Below are positions 42,163-52,090 of a stretch of 64,000 bases of DNA, in pieces. The stretch lies in IMG/VR virus record IMGVR_UViG_3300034061_004620; one strand, given 5' to 3'. The stretch comes from a virus (lineage: Duplodnaviria > Caudoviricetes). Each line of letters starts with the position of its first letter. Position 1 is the stretch's first letter. The notes below the pieces were generated by a model, which was given only the letters and a program-made list of their open reading frames with translations, made no database searches and had not been told where the DNA came from. Made by a program: the position numbers and the translations under genes.

Positions 42163-43377
42163 ATGTATAAACTTGAACAAAACGACAAAATTGGCTTTTA
42201 TACAGTAGGACAAAAAAAATTCTACGGTAAAGTCGAAGCTCTAATTGAAGCCACCAAAACAGGAATATTTCCTAATTGGCATTTCAATCCTGAGGTATAC
42301 AATAATATAGATTGGACTATTGAACCATCTGTTCCTTTGAAAGAGTTATACAAGTTACGGGCACAGCAATTACGAAACAAGTATGACTGGATAAGAGTTG
42401 AAGCATCAGGAGGTGGTGATAGCACAACCGCCATTCTTAGTTTTTTACAAAATGGAATACATTTGGATGAAGTAGTTTTTCGTTATCCCAAGACCGGTGA
42501 CAAAAATGTACACGGCGATCCGTATAATACAAAATGTGAAAATACTTTGAGTGAATGGGACTTTGCTGCCAAACCACTTTTAAATTGGATAGCTACTCAC
42601 TATCCAAGAGTTAAACTCACCATGCATGACTATGCAGAAGACATGCTCAACAAAACTTACGAAGAAGACTGGGTATTTAAATCCAAGGATTATTTTTTAC
42701 CAAGTCATCCGTTCAAGCATGACAATGTTGCATTTATTGACCATAGAAAACAGGCAGAAAAGGGATATAGAATTGCAGTGTTGTATGGTATAGATAAACC
42801 AAGACTTTGCATCAAAGACGGTAAATGGTTTTTGTATTTCATGGATCTACAGACCAATCACAGTAACAGTGTGATGTACGAATATGATAACATTACCAAC
42901 GAGTATTTCTATTGGTCACCGGACTTTCCAGAAGTAGTGCGTAAACAAGCTCACATAATTAAAAACTGGTTCATGATGCCACAAAACCAAGCACTACAGT
43001 ACATTGTAAAATGGCCAAATAACAGTATTGCAAGTAGAACCACTTATGAACAAATGGTAAAACCAATTATATATCCAGATTATGATCCGGCGACGTTTCA
43101 GACTATTAAACCTACAAATAGTTTCTATAATGAAATGGATTATTGGTTTTATGTCAATTTTAAAGAAACTAAGTCTTATCAAATTTGGAAGGCAGGACTA
43201 CAGTTTTTAGTTGACAATATTGATGAAAAATATACCTATAAGGAAATGGGACAACCAATGGGTTTTGTTGGCTTTCTTAGTCCTTTCTATTACTTAGGCC
43301 CAGCATCGTATGTTGACACTGGTGTTAACAATTTTGCAAGATTTGAGATTCCGCCGGTTGAACACAAAGCAGAATGA
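42163..43377 (+). CDS. PP-loop/N-type ATP pyrophosphatase-like protein
   Basis: ASGGGDS PP-loop; EYFYWSPDFPE; GIDKP. Confidence 0.55.
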   Translation: MYKLEQNDKIGFYTVGQKKFYGKVEALIEATKTGIFPNWHFNPEVYNNIDWTIEPSVPLKELYKLRAQQLRNKYDWIRVEASGGGDSTTAILSFLQNGIHLDEVVFRYPKTGDKNVHGDPYNTKCENTLSEWDFAAKPLLNWIATHYPRVKLTMHDYAEDMLNKTYEEDWVFKSKDYFLPSHPFKHDNVAFIDHRKQAEKGYRIAVLYGIDKPRLCIKDGKWFLYFMDLQTNHSNSVMYEYDNITNEYFYWSPDFPEVVRKQAHIIKNWFMMPQNQALQYIVKWPNNSIASRTTYEQMVKPIIYPDYDPATFQTIKPTNSFYNEMDYWFYVNFKETKSYQIWKAGLQFLVDNIDEKYTYKEMGQPMGFVGFLSPFYYLGPASYVDTGVNNFARFEIPPVEHKAE

Positions 43378-43403
43378 ATTTAATCATTTTATTCAAGCAA
43401 TGA

Positions 43404-43432
43404 TTGACAACAATGATAAATAAATATACAAT
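43404..43432 (+). promoter_or_regulatory. Consensus sigma70 promoter driving the leader/tRNA operon
   Basis: TTGACA (43404) -17 nt- TACAAT (43427). Confidence 0.85.
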
Positions 43433-43439
43433 AGAGACT

Positions 43440-43559
43440 ATGATGAACTCAACACTATTACATAAATCGTTTAAATCACAACCCGAATCAGGCCTAATAG
43501 CCTATTGGGTGATTACACGCGATATTAGTAATCGTGCCCTGGGGAAATATAGAACCTAA
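43440..43559 (+). CDS. Putative attenuator leader peptide (39 aa)
   Basis: MMNSTLLHKSFKSQPESGLIAYWVITRDISNRALGKYRT*; its 3' end overlaps the antiterminator arm. Confidence 0.65.
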   Translation: MMNSTLLHKSFKSQPESGLIAYWVITRDISNRALGKYRT

Positions 43560-43616
43560 GTTTAATTACCAAATTCTATAAAACCCCAGGACTCAAAACC
43601 CTGGGGTTTTTGTTTT
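43538..43616 (+). promoter_or_regulatory. Mutually exclusive antiterminator/terminator (attenuator)
   Basis: Terminator AAAACCCCAGG (43580-90)/CCTGGGGTTTT (43600-10) plus U-tract. Antiterminator CCTGGGG-aaa-TATAGAA (43538-54)/TTCTATA-aaa-CCCCAGG (43574-90). Confidence 0.8.
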
Positions 43617-43628
43617 ATAAAGGAAGAA

Positions 43629-43793
43629 ATGACAAACGAACAAGATATACTGTCGTTTCAAAAGAAGTTAGAAGAGCGTAATTTTGTTTTTAGCGATAGG
43701 TTACTTGAACAGTTAGTTAAAAGTAAAATGGAAAGACTGCGTCAACAAATTGAAGATGCAGAACAAATGCGCCGTCTAACTAAACGACGCTAA
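43629..43793 (+). CDS. Small coiled-coil hypothetical protein, first gene after the attenuator
   Basis: RBS AAGGAAG; MTNEQDILSFQKKLEERNFVFSDRLLEQLVKSKMERLRQQIEDAEQMRRLTKRR. Confidence 0.65.
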   Translation: MTNEQDILSFQKKLEERNFVFSDRLLEQLVKSKMERLRQQIEDAEQMRRLTKRR

Positions 43794-43794
43794 A

Positions 43795-44038
43795 AAGTGC
43801 AATGCGGAACGAGGCCGCGGCAGCACTCAAACTTGCCAAACGGGCGGAGCCCTGGATGAAACTGTCGGCGAAAACGCAGGAGTAAAATAGGAATGATAAA
43901 GCACATTCAAACACATAATGGCGGCCGGCGTCATGGATTACTGTTACGAGGATCCAAGAATGTGTTTTATCATGCATCCTTGATGAACAGAAGGTCTTGT
44001 AAACTATTCCTACCTAATAATTTTAGGAACAAGGATGC
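43795..44038 (+). ncRNA. Structured non-coding segment (consecutive stem-loops)
   Basis: ATGATAAAGCACATTC/GAATGTGTTTTATCAT (43893-43973), GCATCCTTG/CAAGGATGC (43974-44038), and GC-rich hairpins upstream. Confidence 0.5.
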
Positions 44039-44048
44039 GCTAAATTAT

Positions 44049-44143
44049 GGTAGGCAGCATTGGTATGCGGCGGAGTCTTATAAGCTCTGGAGACTGGTCA
44101 GATGGGCTGGAACGACAGGGTTCGAATCCCTGGCCTACTACCA
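44049..44143 (+). tRNA. tRNA-Ile(UAU), atypical with a long extra arm
   Basis: GGTAGGC/GCCTACT-A-CCA, loop CTTATAA, TTCGAAT T-loop, ~26-nt variable region. Confidence 0.75.
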
Positions 44144-44149
44144 TACAAA

Positions 44150-44224
44150 GCGGGTATAGCACAGTGGTAGTGCGACACGTTGCCAACGTGTAGGTCGTCA
44201 GTTCGAATCTGACTATCCGCTCCA
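44150..44224 (+). tRNA. tRNA-Gly(GCC)
   Basis: Cloverleaf, loop TTGCCAA, CCA end. Confidence 0.93.
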
Positions 44225-44432
44225 TAACACAGAAAGGTTGACTAAAATGGGGCTTTGATTGTATTATTATTCATTATTGGAATGTTGGTGTGGTTAGATA
44301 AAAATTTTAAATAGGAGATCCTGTTATGGACAGTGACAAGAGTGACAAACGAGGTTTACTAAGATATGGTTGGACATATGAAAACAAGCACAAGCTTGCA
44401 GCATTGATGTGGCAACTGTACGGAGTAAGAAT

Positions 44433-44509
44433 GGGTGCGTAACTCAACTGGTTAGAGTAATCGGCTTTTAACCGATAAGTTGTGAGTTCGAGTCTCACCG
44501 CACCTACCA
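44433..44509 (+). tRNA. tRNA-Lys(UUU)
   Basis: Loop CTTTTAA, CCA end. Confidence 0.95.
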
Positions 44510-44575
44510 TATAAAAACACATTGATTGTCCCACAGAGGCCATTACTAATATCTGCACAGTGTGTTTTTATATGG
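44507..44575 (+). repeat. Long stem-loop starting at the tRNA-Lys CCA
   Basis: CCATATAAAAACACAT pairs with GTGTGTTTTTATATGG. Confidence 0.8.
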
Positions 44576-44590
44576 TTAAAGGAGATTGAT

Positions 44591-44740
44591 ATGCCAATGT
44601 ATGAAACCACAGTTCGTACACCGTCGGGTGATGTAAAAGACCGTGTATACGCAAAGGATTTACAAGAAGCCCGTGTACTTTTTGAACAGCGTCACGGGCC
44701 AAGGAATGTTCCTTACATTCCTAAAGTAATACCAAGTTAA
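44591..44740 (+). CDS. Small hypothetical protein within the tRNA array
   Basis: AAGGAG RBS; MPMYETTVRTPSG... Confidence 0.65.
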   Translation: MPMYETTVRTPSGDVKDRVYAKDLQEARVLFEQRHGPRNVPYIPKVIPS

Positions 44741-44741
44741 T

Positions 44742-44817
44742 TGGGGGTTAGCTCAGTTGGTAGAGCAGCGGATTTTGATTCCGCGTGTCACAGGTTCAAC
44801 TCCTGTACCCCTTACCA
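44742..44817 (+). tRNA. tRNA-Gln(UUG)
   Basis: Loop TTTTGAT, CCA end. Confidence 0.92.
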
Positions 44818-44823
44818 AACAAT

Positions 44824-44898
44824 GGTGTCCGTAGTGTAGAGGCAACACCCAAGATTGTGGATCTTGTATCACCGGTTCGATCCCGGTCGGATACCCCA
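44824..44898 (+). tRNA. tRNA-His(GUG)
   Basis: Loop TTGTGGA; G-1:C73; CCA end. Confidence 0.92.
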
Positions 44899-44899
44899 T

Positions 44900-44975
44900 G
44901 CTGCTTTAGCTGATGTGGTCATAGCGGCGGTTTGAAGAGCCGTTGAACTTGGTTCGATTCCAAGAGGCAGCACCA
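44900..44975 (+). tRNA. tRNA-Phe(GAA)
   Basis: Loop TTGAAGA, CCA end. Confidence 0.93.
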
Positions 44976-44977
44976 AA

Positions 44978-45052
44978 CGGTCCTTAGCTCAGCGGAAGAG
45001 TTCTGGTCTTCGAAACCAGCTGTCGGCAGTTCGAATCTGTCAGGACCGGCCA
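44978..45052 (+). tRNA. tRNA-Arg(UCG)
   Basis: Loop CTTCGAA, CCA end. Confidence 0.92.
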
Positions 45053-45061
45053 GTAAATTAT

Positions 45062-45136
45062 ACCCGAGTAGCTCAGTGGTAGAGCACATTCTTGATAAGG
45101 ATGGGGTCGGTGGATCGTTCCCACCCTCGGGTACCA
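45062..45136 (+). tRNA. tRNA-Ile(GAU)
   Basis: Loop TTGATAA, CCA end. Confidence 0.92.
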
Positions 45137-45140
45137 TCAT

Positions 45141-45216
45141 GGTAGAGTAGCATAGCGGCAAATGCAGCACCTTCATACGGTGCCCATCGTCAGTTCGAGT
45201 CTGACCTCTACTACCA
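45141..45216 (+). tRNA. tRNA-Met(CAU), probably elongator
   Basis: Loop TTCATAC, paired 1:72, CCA end. Confidence 0.85.
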
Positions 45217-45234
45217 GTTAACAAAATAGCAACT

Positions 45235-45294
45235 TGTTGCTTTTTTAATAACAAAAATAAAAGAGTTGACCAAAAAGACCCATTTTGCTATACT
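45235..45294 (+). promoter_or_regulatory. Early promoter module
   Basis: TGTTGC-N7-ATAACA; TTGACC (45266) -17- TATACT (45289). Drives ORF 45323..45595. Confidence 0.8.
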
Positions 45295-45666
45295 ATGGTT
45301 TGTTACTTGCAAAGGAGACAACATGGCCCAGCAGCGTATGAAAGCCCAATCAACTCGCGATTGGGGCGCAGATTTTGCGTACTATGTAGGTGAAGATTCA
45401 GATGGCCGCACTGACACCTATGTGTTTGATTACAAGCCAAATCGCAAGTTGGATGCATACGACAATTATCGCCAGTGTGTGGATCAATATTTCTCGGGTG
45501 CAAGTGAAACACTTGGTTTTCCTTGCAGTCGCGATCTTGCGGCCAAATTGGGTTGCACTGAACAAGATATAGATGATTGGTTGTGCGGCTGTTGACCTGA
45601 ATTAGACAATTATGTATAATAATGAAATAGTGCAGTAAACGTTCATTAACAATCAAGCAACAAAGT

Positions 45667-45750
45667 GCCTCGGTGGTGTAATGGTAGCCACGCTGGTCTT
45701 AGAAGCCAGTGCTGAAAGGCGTGTCAGTTCGAGTCTGACCCGAGGCACCA
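45667..45750 (+). tRNA. tRNA-Leu(UAG)
   Basis: Loop CTTAGAA, variable arm, CCA end. Confidence 0.93.
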
Positions 45751-45846
45751 TATAAAAACACTCTAAACTGGACGCAGGATCGGAGAAGGTTGAAAGCGGA
45801 TTAGCTACCGCAAAGTAAACTGGAGATCAAGAGTGTTTTTGTATGG
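45748..45846 (+). repeat. Long stem-loop starting at the tRNA-Leu CCA
   Basis: CCATATAAAAACACTCT pairs with AGAGTGTTTTTGTATGG; inner GCGG/CCGC hairpin. Confidence 0.8.
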
Positions 45847-46089
45847 ATGTTAAACTTACAAGGAACAACAATTATGGAATATTTTTTCAGTTTCTTACTT
45901 GCATTGGCCATTTTTAGTTTTCCATTCTTGTTAACTTTATGGTTGGTTAGAAAGACTACATTCACAAAACAGGCTGTATTATTTCTGTTTTTGTTAATAC
46001 TTCCGTTTGGTTTTGCTGCGTGGGCTTTTTGTTCCATAATGTATTATTACATAAAATATTCAGCTTCAGGCGATCGTGTGCCTGAATAA

Positions 46090-46354
46090 AGTGTTAAGGG
46101 AAGTGGAGAGAAAAAGTCTCAGAGACAGATTGCTCCTACTTTTAAATGACCATGTGAGGCGCCCTAAGATTCCGGTTACCACTTTCCTGAAAGTGGCGTG
46201 TGGTGCACGAGAAAATCCAGGTGGCTCGGGCACCTTTAGCGAGGCAACCCCTCAGACAACCGAGCAGCGTGAACACTACGCGGCAAAGTCCTTTAGTGTT
46301 CGGACAGGGCAACACCTCAGCTTGGGGGCGACCGTGGAAAAGCGTGGCCCAAGC
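46090..46354 (+). ncRNA. Unknown structured ncRNA, copy A (candidate GOLLD/ROOL-class relative)
   Basis: GC-rich multi-hairpin segment; GGTGCACGAGAAAATCCAGGT and CGGACAGGGCAACACCTCAG are shared with 52091-52290. 5' boundary approximate. Confidence 0.65.
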
Positions 46355-46494
46355 AATTATATTGAAGCACATTTCTGTCATTGCCGTGCCAACTTCACGG
46401 TGAGTACAAGAGTACGGGAGTAGCTACCCGACAGGGTGTACAAAGTTACAAGAGGGTTAATGACAGCCCCTTGGGAGTGTGTTTCAATATAATT
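46355..46494 (+). repeat. Long stem-loop element before tRNA-Arg
   Basis: AATTATATTGAAGCACATT pairs with AGTGTGTTTCAATATAATT; inner TGTCATT/AATGACA. Confidence 0.75.
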
Positions 46495-46495
46495 T

Positions 46496-46570
46496 GCCTC
46501 TGTCGTTCAACGGATAGGATACGAGTCTACGAAACTTGTGATGGTGGTTCGATTCCATCCGGGGGCACCA
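46496..46570 (+). tRNA. tRNA-Arg(ACG)
   Basis: Loop CTACGAA, CCA end. Confidence 0.92.
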
Positions 46571-46577
46571 AAGTTAT

Positions 46578-46652
46578 GCACCATTCGTCTATCGGTTAGG
46601 ACTCAAGGTTTTCATCCTTGCAAGAGCGGTTCGACTCCGCTATGGTGTACCA
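46578..46652 (+). tRNA. tRNA-Glu(UUC)
   Basis: Loop TTTTCAT, CCA end. Confidence 0.94.
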
Positions 46653-46916
46653 TATAAATACAAGCATGAAAGAACTGCTCCGTATGCTACCACAAATTTT
46701 GGGTGCTATGCCCGAAATTGTCAAGTACCTAAAATATATCCCCATACTTATGGTATTAGGGGGCATTGGATATGGAGCGTTTTATTATATGGAAAATCAC
46801 AAAGATCCATATATCTGTGTAAACAATCATGTTTTCGAACAAATACGCATAGATTCCGACATATATGTATTCAAAGGCGGAACTTGCGTTGATTCTAAAG
46901 ATATAAAAGAATAATT

Positions 46917-46990
46917 GGGGGATTGATGTAAAGGGAGCCTGGGGCCTTTGCAAGGCCTTCGTAACAGTTCGATTCTGTTATCCTCCACCA
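46917..46990 (+). tRNA. tRNA-Ala(UGC)
   Basis: Loop TTTGCAA; G3:U70; CCA end. Confidence 0.9.
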
Positions 46991-46999
46991 ATGTTTAAT

Positions 47000-47084
47000 G
47001 GGGATGCGGCTAAGTTAGAGAGTGGCGGCTGACTGTAAATCAGTTCTTTCGGGTGAGTAGGTGCGAATCCTTCCATCCCCACCA
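47000..47084 (+). tRNA. tRNA-Tyr(GUA)
   Basis: Loop CTGTAAA, variable arm, CCA end. Confidence 0.92.
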
Positions 47085-47383
47085 ATAAGGAGTAGTATGG
47101 TTATATATCGTGTACCGCATGCATACTTAAACGACTACCAGATGATTGGTCAGCGACTACAAGTTCTTATGGACATGAAACGCAAGGATATTGATCATCA
47201 AGAACAGTTAGAGTTAGCAAAATTGTTAGCTATTCAAGAAGCACATAGGTTGCTACGAAACTATAACTACAATAAGGATACAGAATTTCTAAGACAATAT
47301 GCTTACGGCGAAAGTATTCGTGAACAAAGATTAGTTCAACGTGCAAGTGCAGTAGGATTACATATAGATAGATATATTTAATT

Positions 47384-47458
47384 GGGCGGTTAGCTCAGTG
47401 GTAGAGCAGGGCCCTTACAAGGCCAAGGTCGGGAGTTCGACCCTCTCACCGCCCACCA
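47384..47458 (+). tRNA. tRNA-Val(UAC)
   Basis: Loop CTTACAA, CCA end. Confidence 0.94.
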
Positions 47459-47465
47459 AGTTTAT

Positions 47466-47540
47466 TCCAGAGTAGCTCAGCGGCAGAGCAGGAGACTGTT
47501 AATCTCTTGGTCGGTGGTTCGATCCCACCCTCTGGAGCCA
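47466..47540 (+). tRNA. tRNA-Asn(GUU)
   Basis: Loop CTGTTAA, CCA end. Confidence 0.95.
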
Positions 47541-47546
47541 GTAGTA

Positions 47547-47621
47547 GGTCTCAAAGTGTTCATGGACGCACATCAGCCTGTCACGCTGAAAGAAGGGGAT
47601 CGTTACCCCTTGGGACCGCCA
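47547..47621 (+). tRNA. tRNA-Asp(GUC)
   Basis: Loop CTGTCAC, CCA end. Confidence 0.9.
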
Positions 47622-47631
47622 ACTTTTTAAT

Positions 47632-47706
47632 GCGGGTGTAACTCAGTGGTAGAGTGTCAGCCTTCCAAGCTGTTCGTCGCAGGTTCGATCCCTGTCACCC
47701 GCTCCA
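47632..47706 (+). tRNA. tRNA-Gly(UCC)
   Basis: Loop CTTCCAA, CCA end. Confidence 0.95.
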
Positions 47707-47712
47707 AATTTC

Positions 47713-47832
47713 TATTGCTTTTAAGCAATATTGTTATTCTTGCAACATTTGTTGCTATTCTTGCAACAAAATATTTTGGTAGACCATAATTCGCCATTTT
47801 GCTATAATAGATGTATAGTGAATAACAAGGAG
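47713..47832 (+). promoter_or_regulatory. Early promoter module with three inverted-repeat boxes
   Basis: TATTGC-N6-GCAATA, TGTTAT..GCAACA, TGTTGC-N7-GCAACA; TAGACC (47780) -17- TATAAT (47803). Confidence 0.85.
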
Positions 47833-47837
47833 CCAAA

Positions 47838-48626
47838 ATGAAGCTGCTAATTACTACTCAAGTTTACGAAAACTATGGCGCCCACGATTGGGACGGCAAG
47901 GGCGAGTGCCCGCAATACTGGAAAGCCAAGGGTGGCAACGACTATGTGGTCAAGAATTTTAAGGGTAAAGATGTTACCATGGCAGTTATGGCGTTGCGTG
48001 ACAAGATCGAAGAAGACAGCCCGTACTTCCGCGAGCACATCGTTGACTTTAACATTGTAGCCGATGACTACCTCACCGAATTCGAGCGGGATCAGCTGGA
48101 GTTTGATGGCAGCATCACCTACCCTGCTCGTGAACTTGAATTAGCCTAAGGAGACCAGTATGTCCAAGAAACATTTTGAATCGTTGGCCAAATATGTTCG
48201 TGCTATCATGGATCCGCATGCCAGACTGCAGGCTGCTTGTGCAGTGGCATCATCCTGTGCAGAAATGAATCCACGATTTGATACCCAGAAATTTTTTGAA
48301 GCTTGCGGTGTGTAAAATAAATGAATAAACTTGTTCGTGATGATTCGGTAGCAATAATAGTTTCTCCAGGGCACGGAGCCGGTTGGTATTCATGGCACGG
48401 TATTGAAGAATTGCTATTTGATCCCAGTATTGTGGCCTGGATTGAATCCAACGAACGTGATAAGATTGAGCACTATCTCGCACTGAAATATCCTGATGAA
48501 TATTTTGGAGACCTCGAAAAATTATCGATTCGATGGATAACCAAAGGTACAGCGTTTAAAATTGACGAGTACGATGGATCAGAATCCATCGAGTATAGAG
48601 ATAAACAAGAGTGGCTTATAGCATAG
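47838..48626 (+). other. Three early hypothetical ORFs (47838..48149, ~48160, 48321..48626)
   Basis: RBS-preceded; YENYGAHDWDG...WKAKGG and SPGHGAGWYSW...YDGSESI are recurrent phage patterns. Confidence 0.7.
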
Positions 48627-48639
48627 AAAGGAGAGCAAA

Positions 48640-49242
48640 ATGCCAGCAGTATTTTTAGTCAGCGACACTCACTTTGGTCATGCTGGCGTTTGCCGTTTCA
48701 TGCGGAACGACGGGGTGACCAAACTGCGTCCTTGGGATAATCCCGAAGAAATGGACGAGTTCATGATCAAAGCATGGAACGAACGTGTACGTCCAAACGA
48801 CAAAGTGTATCACCTGGGCGATGTTGTTATTAACCGTAGAGCAATGAGTACACTGGCACGTCTTAATGGTGACAAGGTGCTTATACGTGGTAACCACGAT
48901 ATCTTCCGTGATGACGAATATAGACAGTACTTTCGTGAACTACGTGCATACCATGTCATGAACGGAATGATACTGAGTCATATTCCTATTCATGAAGACA
49001 GTCTGGGTAGATTTGGTACCAACATACACGGGCACCTTCATGCTAACCGTGTAATGAAACGTGCCAGCAGTACTGCCGAGTTCATGGAGTGGGGTGTACG
49101 AGAACGTATTGATCCGCGCTATCATTGTGTATGCGTAGAACAAACAGACTTTGCTCCTATACTGTTTGAGGATGCAATCAAACGCATCGTGGAGGAAGGT
49201 GGTACAATAGGCTTTAAGAACGGTAACGGTCCTACAATGTAA
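48640..49242 (+). CDS. Calcineurin-like metallophosphoesterase
   Basis: SDTHFGH, HLGDV, RGNHD, LSHIP, HGHLH. Confidence 0.92.
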   Translation: MPAVFLVSDTHFGHAGVCRFMRNDGVTKLRPWDNPEEMDEFMIKAWNERVRPNDKVYHLGDVVINRRAMSTLARLNGDKVLIRGNHDIFRDDEYRQYFRELRAYHVMNGMILSHIPIHEDSLGRFGTNIHGHLHANRVMKRASSTAEFMEWGVRERIDPRYHCVCVEQTDFAPILFEDAIKRIVEEGGTIGFKNGNGPTM

Positions 49243-49285
49243 TTGTTGACAGGACCGTTACCAACATATATAATAGCAACATAAT

Positions 49286-49373
49286 GGAGAGTTGGCCGAG
49301 TGGTTAAGGCAGCAGTTTGCTAAACTGTCGTTGGGAAACCGACGCATAGGTTCGAATCCTATACTCTCCGCCA
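49286..49373 (+). tRNA. tRNA-Ser(GCU)
   Basis: Loop TTGCTAA, long variable arm, CCA end. Confidence 0.95.
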
Positions 49374-49379
49374 AGTTAG

Positions 49380-49453
49380 GCCCTTTTAGTATAATGGTAA
49401 TACAGTGGATTTGTAATCCTCTGATGGCAGTTCGATTCTGTCAAGGGGCACCA
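49380..49453 (+). tRNA. tRNA-Thr(UGU)
   Basis: Loop TTTGTAA, CCA end. Confidence 0.93.
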
Positions 49454-49700
49454 AAAGGATAATATATGGCACGATTTAGTGATGAAACGCAACAAGTGAT
49501 TGATAGGTTAATGAATTTGCAAGAATTTACTGTAAGTATACCTGTCGAAGAAAATTGGATGCCTAATGGTGTTGTGCCATTTGATATACGAATAAAAAAC
49601 GGATTAGCAACCGTAAGTGTGCCGGCCTTGACAGAAGATGAGGCTCGTAGTAAAATAATAGCATATTTTAACGGTAGTGATCAAGAGGATTAAAAATTAT

Positions 49701-49779
49701 CCGGGTGTAGCTTAGTCTGGCTTAAAGCGCCTGCTTTGGGAGCAGGAGATCGTGAGTTCGAATCCCACTTCCCGGACCA
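49701..49779 (+). tRNA. tRNA-Pro(UGG)
   Basis: Loop TTTGGGA, CCA end. Confidence 0.93.
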
Positions 49780-49788
49780 AGAGATATT

Positions 49789-49873
49789 GCGACTGTGGTG
49801 AAACAGGTATACACAGCAGACTTAAAATCTGCCGCTGCAAGGCGTGCCGGTTCGATTCCGGCCAGTCGCACCA
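49789..49873 (+). tRNA. tRNA-Leu(UAA)
   Basis: Loop CTTAAAA, variable arm, CCA end. Confidence 0.95.
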
Positions 49874-49880
49874 AGTTTCT

Positions 49881-49958
49881 GGGCCTTTAGCTCATGGTGG
49901 TTAGAGCATCCGACTCATAATCGGGTGGCGGTTGGTTCGACTCCAACAAGGCCCACCA
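49881..49958 (+). tRNA. tRNA(CAU), probably Ile2 (lysidine-modified)
   Basis: Loop CTCATAA; the body resembles bacterial tRNA-Ile2 (GGGCC..TAGCTCA..GGTTAGAGCA..CGACTCATAATCG). Confidence 0.8.
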
Positions 49959-49966
49959 AGTTGTAT

Positions 49967-50041
49967 CTGGCGTTAGTATAATGGATAATACAGGGGATTT
50001 CTACTCCCTTAATGTGGGTTCGATCCCTGCACGCCGGACCA
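49967..50041 (+). tRNA. tRNA-Arg(UCU)
   Basis: Stem GGGGA/TCCCT, loop TTTCTAC, CCA end. Confidence 0.9.
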
Positions 50042-50400
50042 GATTGACTAAAATTCAACTGTTGTGTTATAATGTTGTATTATTTAGGGAGACAACTGTG
50101 AATTTAAATGACATATTGGGTACGCCAATTGAAGTAGGTTCAACAGTGATTACTTGTCATAACAATAGAATAATTTTAGGGCGAATTATTGAGGTGTTTG
50201 AAAATTCGTATAGCGTCAAAGTAGAACCTATACAGTCCGACACAGCCGGGCGGCGACCGGTACCCAAAATGAAGCCGTTTCGTCGTGGTGAATATAATGT
50301 TTTTGTGGTAAATGACCAAGAATTATTTATAAGCACCCTCAAAGGTTATGCTCATAACACTGGCGAGTTTGATGATGAGGAAGAATTAGAAGATTAATAT

Positions 50401-50478
50401 GCACTGGTACCAGAGTGGCCTAATGGCGGGGTCTGCAAAACCTTCGATTCGCTGGTTCAAATCCAGCCCAGTGCTCCA
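50401..50478 (+). tRNA. tRNA-Cys(GCA)
   Basis: Loop CTGCAAA, U73, CCA end. Confidence 0.92.
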
Positions 50479-50725
50479 TAAATATTTGCATGTTAGTGGA
50501 TTGGCACCGATTCCCTTATCATGCAATCATTCCTTGGCCCAATCATGAATATCAACAAGATTGGGTCAACAGTCTACTTGTAGTAGAGGATTGGTTGAAA
50601 CAATGTGTTGGCGCAAGATATACAACTTGGGCCTATGCGGATTGTGCTGTTCTTTACAATATAGGTGTAGCATTTAAATGGGATCAAGATCGAACATTGT
50701 TTGTTATGACTTGGTCCAAATGATT

Positions 50726-50815
50726 GGAAGTGTGGCAGAGTCCGGTTTATTGCACCTGTCTTGAAAACAGACGAACCAAAAGGTTCCGTGAGTTCGAATC
50801 TCACCGCTTCCGCCA
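50726..50815 (+). tRNA. tRNA-Ser(UGA)
   Basis: Loop CTTGAAA, long variable arm, CCA end. Confidence 0.95.
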
Positions 50816-51149
50816 AAATAGTAGTTGACACAAATACAAACCTCATGTAAAATATGAAGTACATTAACTAATTAGGAGTTGTAATGAGTATTCAAACAAG
50901 AGCAATTCTTCGTACATTGGGAATGATCGCTATTGCAGCATTAGGTCCTATTGCAGTAGTGGCACTGTTTCAGCTTGATGGAGAAACTCTTTTTAATTTA
51001 TTCATACTTACAATCTTTGCTTGGATGATCTGGGTTATATATTCTATCAACCTCAGTCAGCTGGAAACTGAAGAAAAAGTTCGTGAGATGCAAGAACGTA
51101 GAGAATTGATGATTTCTAATGTAGTTAAAGATCCAGAGTAAAGGTATAC

Positions 51150-51223
51150 CCGGGAGTAGTATAGTGGTAGTACAGCAGCCTCCAAATCTGCCTGTGGGAG
51201 TTCGATTCTCTCCTCCCGGGCCA
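51150..51223 (+). tRNA. tRNA-Trp(CCA)
   Basis: Loop CTCCAAA, CCA end. Confidence 0.92.
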
Positions 51224-51721
51224 CTATAAAATTTTATTTGATTTGCGTCTGTTTTCACTGATAGTAAGGTATTGCAAATTAGATAAACAATGCAGTCCGC
51301 CCTTACTTATCGGAATAATATGATCTACTTCGTATCCAACAGCACAATTTAAATAAAAATCTTGTAATGCTTTAATATCAACATCGTTAGGAGTTTGATT
51401 TTTGCGTTTAGCCATGTAACGGTGCCAAGCCTCGTTATGTACTGATAAGCTTCGGATATATTTTTCTTCTTCTGTAAGTTTTAGGCGACGGGGATTACAT
51501 GCATCGGAACAATAGACTGGACGGGCTGTTTCGATACCGCATGTTTTACAAGGTTTAACAGTGCTATATCTTGATTCAGGTTTAGAATGTCGTCTAAGAC
51601 CTGTATTGTTAAAAGTAGCAGAACAAGATCGAGAACAAAATTTCTTTTGATCTTTACGAGTAAGTTCGGCTTGACAATTTAGGCATTTCATAGTATTATT
51701 TATGAATGGTTGTGGTTCCAA
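51224..51721 (-). mobile_element. HNH homing endonuclease inserted antisense in the tRNA array
   Basis: CxxC zinc modules (CLNC, FCSRSC, YCSDAC); YEVDHIIPISKGGLHCLSNLQYLTISENRRKSN. Stop codon abuts the tRNA-Trp CCA. Confidence 0.88.
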
Positions 51722-52013
51722 TTCACTTTTATTTTACAGGAGCGTAGTATGATCAAGTATTTTCGAGTAAGTATTCCTTTTTTGGTAGTTGTGTTGGCGA
51801 TCATAAACGGATTGACAGCACTTGGTTCTGATAACATGCCAGCATTTTATGCCAATATTACAGCACTATGTGGTTGGCTTGCTATTTCTTATGACGAATA
51901 CGTGACTTTTCGTTTGAACAGGAGTCGTGATGTTTCCAATACCCCTGCGTGAAATACCTTATTATATCAAATGGCGTTTTAAACAACTGTTAAAACGATT
52001 TAAATAAATCAAT

Positions 52014-52090
52014 GGCGGAGGGGAGAAACGGTTTACTCGTCAGTCTCATAAGCTGAAGACATCAGGTTCGATTCCTGTTCTCCGCAACCA
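52014..52090 (+). tRNA. tRNA-fMet-like (CAU)
   Basis: Loop CTCATAA; unpaired 1:72 (G:A); CCA end. Lacks the three G-C anticodon-stem pairs. Confidence 0.8.

Follow-up and report, generated by a model that had tools for sequence, protein, structure and literature searches.

A candidate leader-peptide transcription attenuator ahead of the tRNA region of uncultured phages

A promoter, a short open reading frame (ORF) and an intrinsic terminator stand ahead of the tRNA region of an uncultured giant phage from lake water, whose DNA was analysed here as a window of 64,000 nucleotides from the IMG/VR virus record IMGVR_UViG_3300034061_004620. The last sense codons of the ORF can pair with the segment that contains the 5' arm of the terminator, and this arrangement recurs in divergent phage lineages. 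Judging from the sequence and its conservation, we consider it likely that the cassette is a ribosome-mediated (leader-peptide) transcription attenuator, with transcription probably reaching the tRNA region only when ribosomes translate slowly. Phage tRNA genes have been discussed in terms of codon compensation, replacement of degraded host tRNAs and escape from tRNA-cleaving defences (PMC10264068, PMC11464382, PMC11555353), and the control of their expression has so far been largely unaddressed. A literature search returned no report of an attenuator on phage tRNA genes. With a switch that the ribosome reads, tRNA supply would follow demand. The reach of leader-peptide attenuation would also grow from one to three amino acids to the full set of twenty, and tRNA genes and viruses would join biosynthetic operons among its settings. 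The switch is small and self-contained, hence neither the uncultured phage nor its host would be needed to test it, a cell-free system being sufficient, and it could serve as a reporter of general decoding capacity.

Architecture and conservation of the leader

A sequence-only reading of this DNA had described a consensus sigma70 promoter followed by a nearly leaderless 39-aa ORF and a terminator, and reading positions 43200-43900 confirmed every one of these elements (Table 1). The promoter matches the consensus at 11 of 12 positions, and no other promoter-like site was found on the + strand from 43432 to 44238. Since ATGATG follows the -10 hexamer by only 7 nt, the mRNA is predicted to be leaderless or nearly so. 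The spacer of the promoter carries a TAAATA(A)-like motif that was present, at a slightly variable offset, in 16 out of 16 leaderless lineages and absent from the other strong promoters of the window; it may constitute an operator or mark a special promoter class. The encoded peptide uses 19 different amino acids, Cys being the one missing.

Table 1. Predicted features of the leader and of the region downstream of it, in window coordinates
Feature	Position	Strand	Details or basis
Sigma70-type promoter	43404-43432	+	TTGACA 43404-43409, 17-nt spacer, TACAAT 43427-43432
Spacer motif ATAAATAA of the leader promoter	43416-43423	+	Read in sequence
Leader ORF, 39 codons, starting ATGATG	43440-43559	+	Opens 7 nt past the -10 hexamer
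Small hairpin within the leader ORF, just 5' of the antiterminator arm	43518-43536	+	Folding
Antiterminator 5' arm (region 2)	43538-43554	+	Last sense codons of the leader ORF
Leader stop codon TAA	43557-43559	+	In the antiterminator apical loop
Antiterminator 3' arm (region 3)	43574-43590	+	Reading and folds
Intrinsic terminator	43584-43616	+	7-bp G+C-rich stem, 9-nt A-rich loop, T-run
54-aa ORF with its own ribosome-binding site, first gene past the terminator	43629-43793	+	Sequence reading
Conserved structured RNA element, ~100 nt	43796-43895	+	Cross-lineage comparison
First two tRNAs: atypical 95-nt tRNA (anticodon UAU) and tRNA-Gly(GCC)	44049-44224	+	ARAGORN

Two hairpins compete for one stretch of the leader. 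CCTGGGG (43538-43544) pairs with CCCCAGG (43584-43590) and TATAGAA (43548-43554) with TTCTATA (43574-43580), which gives an antiterminator helix of 14 bp flanking a 3x3 internal loop. The last 7 nt of its 3' arm, 43584-43590, double as the 5' arm of the terminator, whose stem is completed by CCTGGGG (43600-43606) and followed by TTTTTGTTTT (43607-43616). Both the sharing of this arm by a 14-bp antiterminator and the location of the stop codon in its loop, as claimed from the sequence alone, were confirmed by reading and folding. The whole leader folded at -47.8 kcal/mol (z = -3.98, ViennaRNA), and its predicted folds differed, the minimum free energy structure being the terminator and the centroid the antiterminator. 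The RNA preceding the 3' arm of the terminator folded as the antiterminator at -23.5 kcal/mol, versus -9.7 +/- 2.8 kcal/mol for shuffled sequences, none of which (0 out of 300) matched its energy. Just upstream, the small hairpin at 43518-43536 is nearly invariant across close relatives and carries a conserved AATCGTG motif (GATCGY in relatives). A trp-type region 1 pairing with region 2 was not found in whole-leader folds of 16 representatives, and no codon runs for a single amino acid were found. The trp/his-type geometry that had been claimed thus applies to the mutually exclusive terminator and antiterminator, and it does not extend to a region 1 or to clustered regulatory codons.

The terminator loop (43591-43599) reads ACUCAAAAC in the window and ACUAAACAC in many lineages, and this stem type together with a ACUAAACAC-like loop recurs across many of them. 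The sequence of the 9-nt A-rich loop is conserved across several clades, which is unusual for the loop of an intrinsic terminator.

Relatives were identified by pattern scans on the motif of the RNA element that lies downstream of the terminator, two of viral contigs and one of metagenome contigs; the conserved motif had been revealed by one related contig with colinear weak matches. The scans yielded 147 loci with the core motif in 51 loose DNA clusters, some of them chance pattern matches. A short ORF of 22-58 codons that ends 22-37 nt before a terminator is present in ~26 lineages, which are divergent and belong to uncultured, mostly giant phages. Specifically, 44 loci presented a sigma70-type promoter with an ATG 6-10 nt later, an ORF of 27-45 codons and a stop codon 22-33 nt before the terminator arm, and 11 more presented short ORFs (22-58 aa) that start at a greater distance from the promoter, some of them preceded by an AAGGAG- or AAGGAA-type site, and end 26-37 nt before the terminator arm. 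Such a leader ORF was kept in 25 out of 25 lineages, compared to ~7% of dinucleotide shuffles of each.

The antiterminator was found in all 16 non-redundant representatives that were folded, with a partner of the ORF end that overlaps the 5' arm of the terminator by 2-7 nt (just 3-4 nt in many lineages) and, in every lineage folded, with the stop codon within the hairpin. In these representatives the antiterminator reached -13 to -27 kcal/mol, versus -8 to -13 kcal/mol for the terminator. The sequences of the antiterminator arms differ between lineages; two loci, L138 and L176, carry the exact terminator of the window, yet they use different antiterminator partners and registers. In an alignment-free comparison, the ORF end paired with its own pre-terminator segment at -16.1 kcal/mol and with the segments of other lineages at -10.2 kcal/mol. 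None of 5000 permutations reached the mean for own segments, and the own segment was the best partner in 13 out of 26 cases. At 87 other terminator-like sites of the same loci, the pairing with upstream sequence amounted to -9.7 kcal/mol, compared to -19.2 kcal/mol at the leaders (Mann-Whitney P = 2e-20). Altogether, these sequence comparisons indicate that the pairing between the ORF end and the terminator arm is not due to chance.

Among nine close relatives, both helices are nearly invariant (97.6% of cells paired in the 5' arm, 43538-43554) while the intervening loop varies in sequence and length. The single compensatory pair found among them is a count that 110 out of 500 shuffles also reached, hence uninformative alone. 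Covariation of the antiterminator, which had been proposed as a check, is thus borne out by the alignment-free permutations across lineages rather than by close relatives, and the combination of ORF and antiterminator has been kept across the ~26 lineages.

The region downstream of the terminator

Between the terminator and the RNA element there are either 20-40 nt or ~200 nt with a small ORF in between. The relatives that carry the 54-aa ORF, for which no Pfam family was found, keep the ~200 nt, and lineages with 20-75 nt cannot fit it. In the RNA element, the AACGAGG loop of one hairpin is invariant, two helices interleave as a pseudoknot, a closing helix surrounds a variable hairpin, and the motifs AAACGGGCGG and GGATGA do not vary. 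The strands of its helices P2, P3 and P4 pair better with each other than with those of other lineages (0 out of 5000 permutations). An RNAalifold consensus recovered only one hairpin because two of the helices interleave. Searches against Rfam 15 gave no match at the element, and tRNAs plus chance-level matches elsewhere in the loci. Among the 131 loci with enough downstream sequence, 104 have tRNAs on the same strand within 3 kb downstream of the motif (median 7). We propose the element as a new candidate RNA family that heads tRNA arrays in more than 100 phage contigs.

The element was observed in more than 100 IMG/VR and metagenome loci, for example at L017:8208-8331 and L077:952-1081. An ORF that runs across it in the window (43802-43885) was rejected as a gene, reading of the sequences of relatives having shown that it is not conserved.

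ARAGORN predicted 28 tRNA genes for all 20 amino acids from 44049 to 52086. Consensus promoters lie inside this array at 45592, 49246, 49628, 50044, 50825 and 51671, and a weaker one at 44238, which leaves the 54-aa ORF, the RNA element and the first two tRNAs as the only genes without another predicted promoter. The statement that the terminator gates the complete tRNA array was, given the several internal consensus promoters, an overstatement. Gating is partial because of these promoters and because, in a minority of lineages (L077, L079, L134, L099, L125, L126, L185, L201 and L122), a promoter follows the terminator ahead of the RNA element. In several other lineages (e.g. L017) only 20-40 nt separate the terminator from the RNA element and the tRNAs, too few for a promoter, and therefore the RNA element and the tRNAs would there require read-through.

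In L077 (700-960) and L079, a 77-aa ORF is closely followed by a hairpin, the 3' arm of which overlaps a terminator. Both loci present a consensus promoter immediately before the RNA element, and for that reason their downstream unit would not be gated. The 95-nt tRNA-like gene of the window (44049-44143) gave its best Rfam score, a sub-threshold one, with tRNA-Sec. A freshwater RNA library contains a contig that matches 44047-44143 with zero mismatches and has a flank that differs from the window.

The leader peptide, the proposed switch and its alternatives

The leader ORF of close relatives varies at 8, 14 and 10 sites in the first, second and third codon positions, its pairwise dN/dS values are mostly 0.4-1.2, and the one indel, of 3 nt, is in frame. 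A peptide so little constrained in a frame that is kept fits a leader peptide, for which translation and not the product matters, and argues against a micro-protein. Translation of the ORF is suggested by the kept frame, by the fixed position of the stop codon and by the location of the ATG, which lies either at the predicted transcription start (6-10 nt past the -10 hexamer) or behind a longer 5' leader, in some lineages with a ribosome-binding site.

We compared 30 non-redundant leaders with windows of equal length from real proteins of the same loci. All 20 amino acids were present in 10 leaders and 19 in another 10, while the null mean was ~16.5. Fisher's combined P was ~6e-9, an optimistic value given that the lineages share ancestry. 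The leader of the window reaches its 19 amino acids within the first 30 codons (P = 0.007), and the short leaders (L097, L178, L183, L177 and L015) showed no excess diversity. The composition was also compared with the amino acids of the tRNAs downstream on the same contig, excluding the last seven codons of each leader. Agreement was higher with a leader's own downstream tRNAs than with the tRNAs of another lineage (0 out of 20000 permutations; 23 out of 20000 when restricted to lineages with at least 2.9 kb of downstream sequence). The effect was driven by leaders of restricted composition (L177, L178, L183 and L206), as in L177 (0.93 with its own tRNAs versus 0.54 with others) and L178 (0.86 versus 0.39), and the window combines a complete tRNA array with a near-complete leader. 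The presence of CTA, TTA, ATA and AGA codons, for which the array supplies tRNAs, had been put forward in the same sense. This argument did not hold, since exact cognates of phage anticodons account for 54% of codons in the leader versus 49% in long ORFs (P = 0.32).

These observations can be assembled into the following sequence of events. Transcription would start at or beside the ATG at 43440, and a ribosome would translate the 39 codons as RNA polymerase advances toward 43616. With translation keeping pace, the ribosome would melt 43538-43554 and then cover it while on the stop codon, 43584-43590 would be left free to pair with 43600-43606, and transcription would stop at the T-run. If the ribosome were late, owing to poor initiation or to a stall in about the first 30 codons for lack of a charged tRNA, the end of the ORF would pair first with 43574-43590, the terminator would be blocked and RNA polymerase would read through into the 54-aa ORF, the RNA element and the first tRNA genes. 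The free arm would win because it is transcribed first and forms the more stable helix. The switch would thus amount to a kinetic race that reports decoding capacity, and this capacity would be a general one because the leader samples nearly every amino acid. The translation of the ORF, the direction of the switch and its physiological trigger are what we infer here.

From the established dimensions of the ribosome footprint, a ribosome that holds the stop codon in the A site would cover ~43540-43569, almost all of the 5' arm of the antiterminator, and none of 43574-43606. In all lineages the stop codon precedes the terminator arm by 22-37 nt, a distance at which, from the footprint dimensions, the terminating ribosome would mask the antiterminator arm and not the terminator. 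The same geometry restricts the earlier proposal that a stall anywhere upstream suffices, as a ribosome in about the last 8 codons would still cover the 5' arm of the antiterminator. No upstream segment competes for this arm, and therefore the predicted default without translation is read-through and not super-attenuation.

As to what the switch may sense, we tentatively suggest, as a reading that we hold somewhat less probable than its opposite, that the leader is a pan-tRNA sensor. Depletion of any tRNA, or its cleavage by a host anticodon nuclease, would delay the ribosome and switch on the tRNA region and the RNA element, and in phages with partial arrays the leader would have been cut to the matching subset of amino acids. 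Were this so, it would represent a self-tuning supply and counter-defence circuit common to many uncultured giant phages. The idea of a general sensor of tRNA shortage, already formulated from the sequence alone, gains from the diversity of the leaders and from their match to downstream tRNAs, and loses the codon argument and the stall at any position.

RNA sequencing runs were searched for the transcript, and none contained more than ~7% of the sampled words; four of the runs contained short contig pieces from relatives only. Two RNA-library pieces bridge the terminator, with the limits that contigs cannot show RNA ends and that DNA carry-over is possible.

A few positions of the leader are conserved, namely an early His, a mid-peptide Trp and a GATCGY / Asp-Arg motif, and they are unexplained by a pure any-codon sensor. 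In TnaC, SecM and Erm leaders, the ribosome stalls in response to one specific signal. The conserved residues could likewise constitute an arrest peptide, in which Trp, Asp-Arg or GATCGY would stall the ribosome on one such signal and operate the same downstream switch. Trp and His are present in 19 out of 19 non-redundant leaders, the (N/S)-D-R / GATCGY motif lies 5-12 codons before the stop in many lineages, and a ribosome halted at this motif would not cover the antiterminator arm. However, many lineages lack the motif or carry an altered form of it, its spacing from the stop codon is not constant, the remaining peptide evolves almost freely, and neither the high amino-acid diversity nor the match to downstream tRNAs is predicted by an arrest peptide. 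To our knowledge, the leaders contain no known arrest motif, and we regard this explanation as improbable.

We give similarly little credence to a stand-alone small gene, for a micro-protein or an RNA of ~177 nt, which would end at a leaky terminator. The pairing would then merely stabilise the 3' end, and the downstream genes would owe their expression to constitutive leak or to other promoters. Promoter, ORF and terminator do form a complete unit, a promoter follows the terminator in some lineages and a few residues are conserved. Nevertheless, the dN/dS values and the high variability of second codon positions are a misfit for a functional protein, the pairing always overlaps the 5' arm of the terminator and is specific to these terminators, several lineages have this terminator alone between the promoter and the RNA element with its tRNAs, and the composition of the leader tracks these tRNAs.

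RNAs that bind ligands or proteins usually show conserved primary sequence. An attenuator whose switching depends not on the ribosome but on another factor, be it a phage or host RNA-binding protein, an uncharged tRNA in the manner of a T-box or a small molecule, is very unlikely in our view: the ACUAAACAC-like terminator loop and GATCGY are conserved beyond what a hairpin needs and the spacer motif of the promoter hints at added control, but no Rfam family including T-box and PyrR was matched (one sub-threshold PyrR match, E = 2.6), the leader is nearly devoid of conserved primary sequence across lineages, and the conserved open frame and fixed stop position would be left unexplained. The conserved spacer, terminator-loop and leader motifs may leave room for an arrest-peptide or factor-assisted variant of the ribosome-mediated attenuator.

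Relation to known systems and source of the sequence

The cassette resembles the trpL, hisL, leuL, thrL, pheL and multivalent ilvGMEDA leaders in having a short leader ORF and mutually exclusive antiterminator and terminator hairpins. As in those enterobacterial leaders, a ribosome at the stop codon would favour termination and a lagging one read-through. In contrast to them, it presents near-maximal amino-acid diversity instead of a codon run for a single amino acid, and no region 1 hairpin was found in it, so that super-attenuation is not predicted. Its mRNA would be leaderless or nearly so, its antiterminator arm lies inside the ORF and not after it, and its targets are phage tRNAs and a structured RNA instead of biosynthetic enzymes. 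T-box riboswitches are characterised by conserved Stem I and T-box sequences and recognise uncharged tRNA by direct binding. They would share with the phage cassette a choice between terminator and antiterminator tied to tRNA status, whereas the conserved feature here is an ORF, and no Rfam match to Stem I or the T-box sequence was found in the window (E <= 1) or in eight relatives (E <= 5).

Similarly, the vmlR, msrD, mef/mel, erm and cat leaders monitor translation through a short upstream ORF, and slowing of the ribosome opens the terminator (PMC9226507, PMC4335068). Their signal is a ribosome that has bound a drug and stands at a particular peptide context, and they control resistance factors (PMC9226507, PMC4335068), whereas the phage cassettes imply no drug, their peptide can vary almost freely and they target a tRNA region. 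In function, the closest precedent is the trn operon of Anabaena, whose 26 tRNA genes are induced under translational stress via TrcR, a DNA-binding repressor whose level drops under stress (PMC10272220). Both would keep an accessory tRNA array low and turn it on when translation is impaired, the cellular one through a repressor and the viral one, as we propose, through an RNA switch that the ribosome reads during transcription. The cassette follows the logic of leader-peptide attenuation and differs in that no codon run and no region 1 were found, in its predicted leaderless start, in its tRNA and RNA target and in its viral setting.

Throughout its length the window has the character of phage DNA, and almost all of its genes share one strand. 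Its sequence recurs in many lake-water metagenomes, 14 DNA sequencing runs containing the phage. No cultured relatives were found: a DNA search with the region matched only tRNA-Gly, a protein search with the 1231-aa ORF gave no matches and a search with the RNA element returned only chance matches in Klebsiella phages. A scan of a genome collection found four contigs in bins of four taxa (Bacteroidales, Myxococcales, Chitinophagaceae and Chlorobiaceae); we rejected a host assignment from these bins, which most likely reflect binning noise.

The gene upstream of the cassette (42163-43377) encodes a 404-aa protein with an SGGGDS (PP-loop-like) motif and no Pfam match, and relatives with 59-74% identity are encoded in five viral contigs. 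Synteny through this gene was considered and rejected, as its orthologues in the five contigs precede a different gene and not a tRNA region. Downstream of these orthologues and upstream of a gene for a likely solute-binding protein, a conserved non-coding stretch starting GCAACGCCAACAG was observed (L001:5190-5330, L003:3650-3795 and L004:5205-5350), which could be a cis-regulatory RNA. Lastly, ARAGORN predicted permuted tmRNA genes near the orthologue of the 404-aa gene in related giant-phage contigs (L001:7217-7657 and L002:7262-7670).
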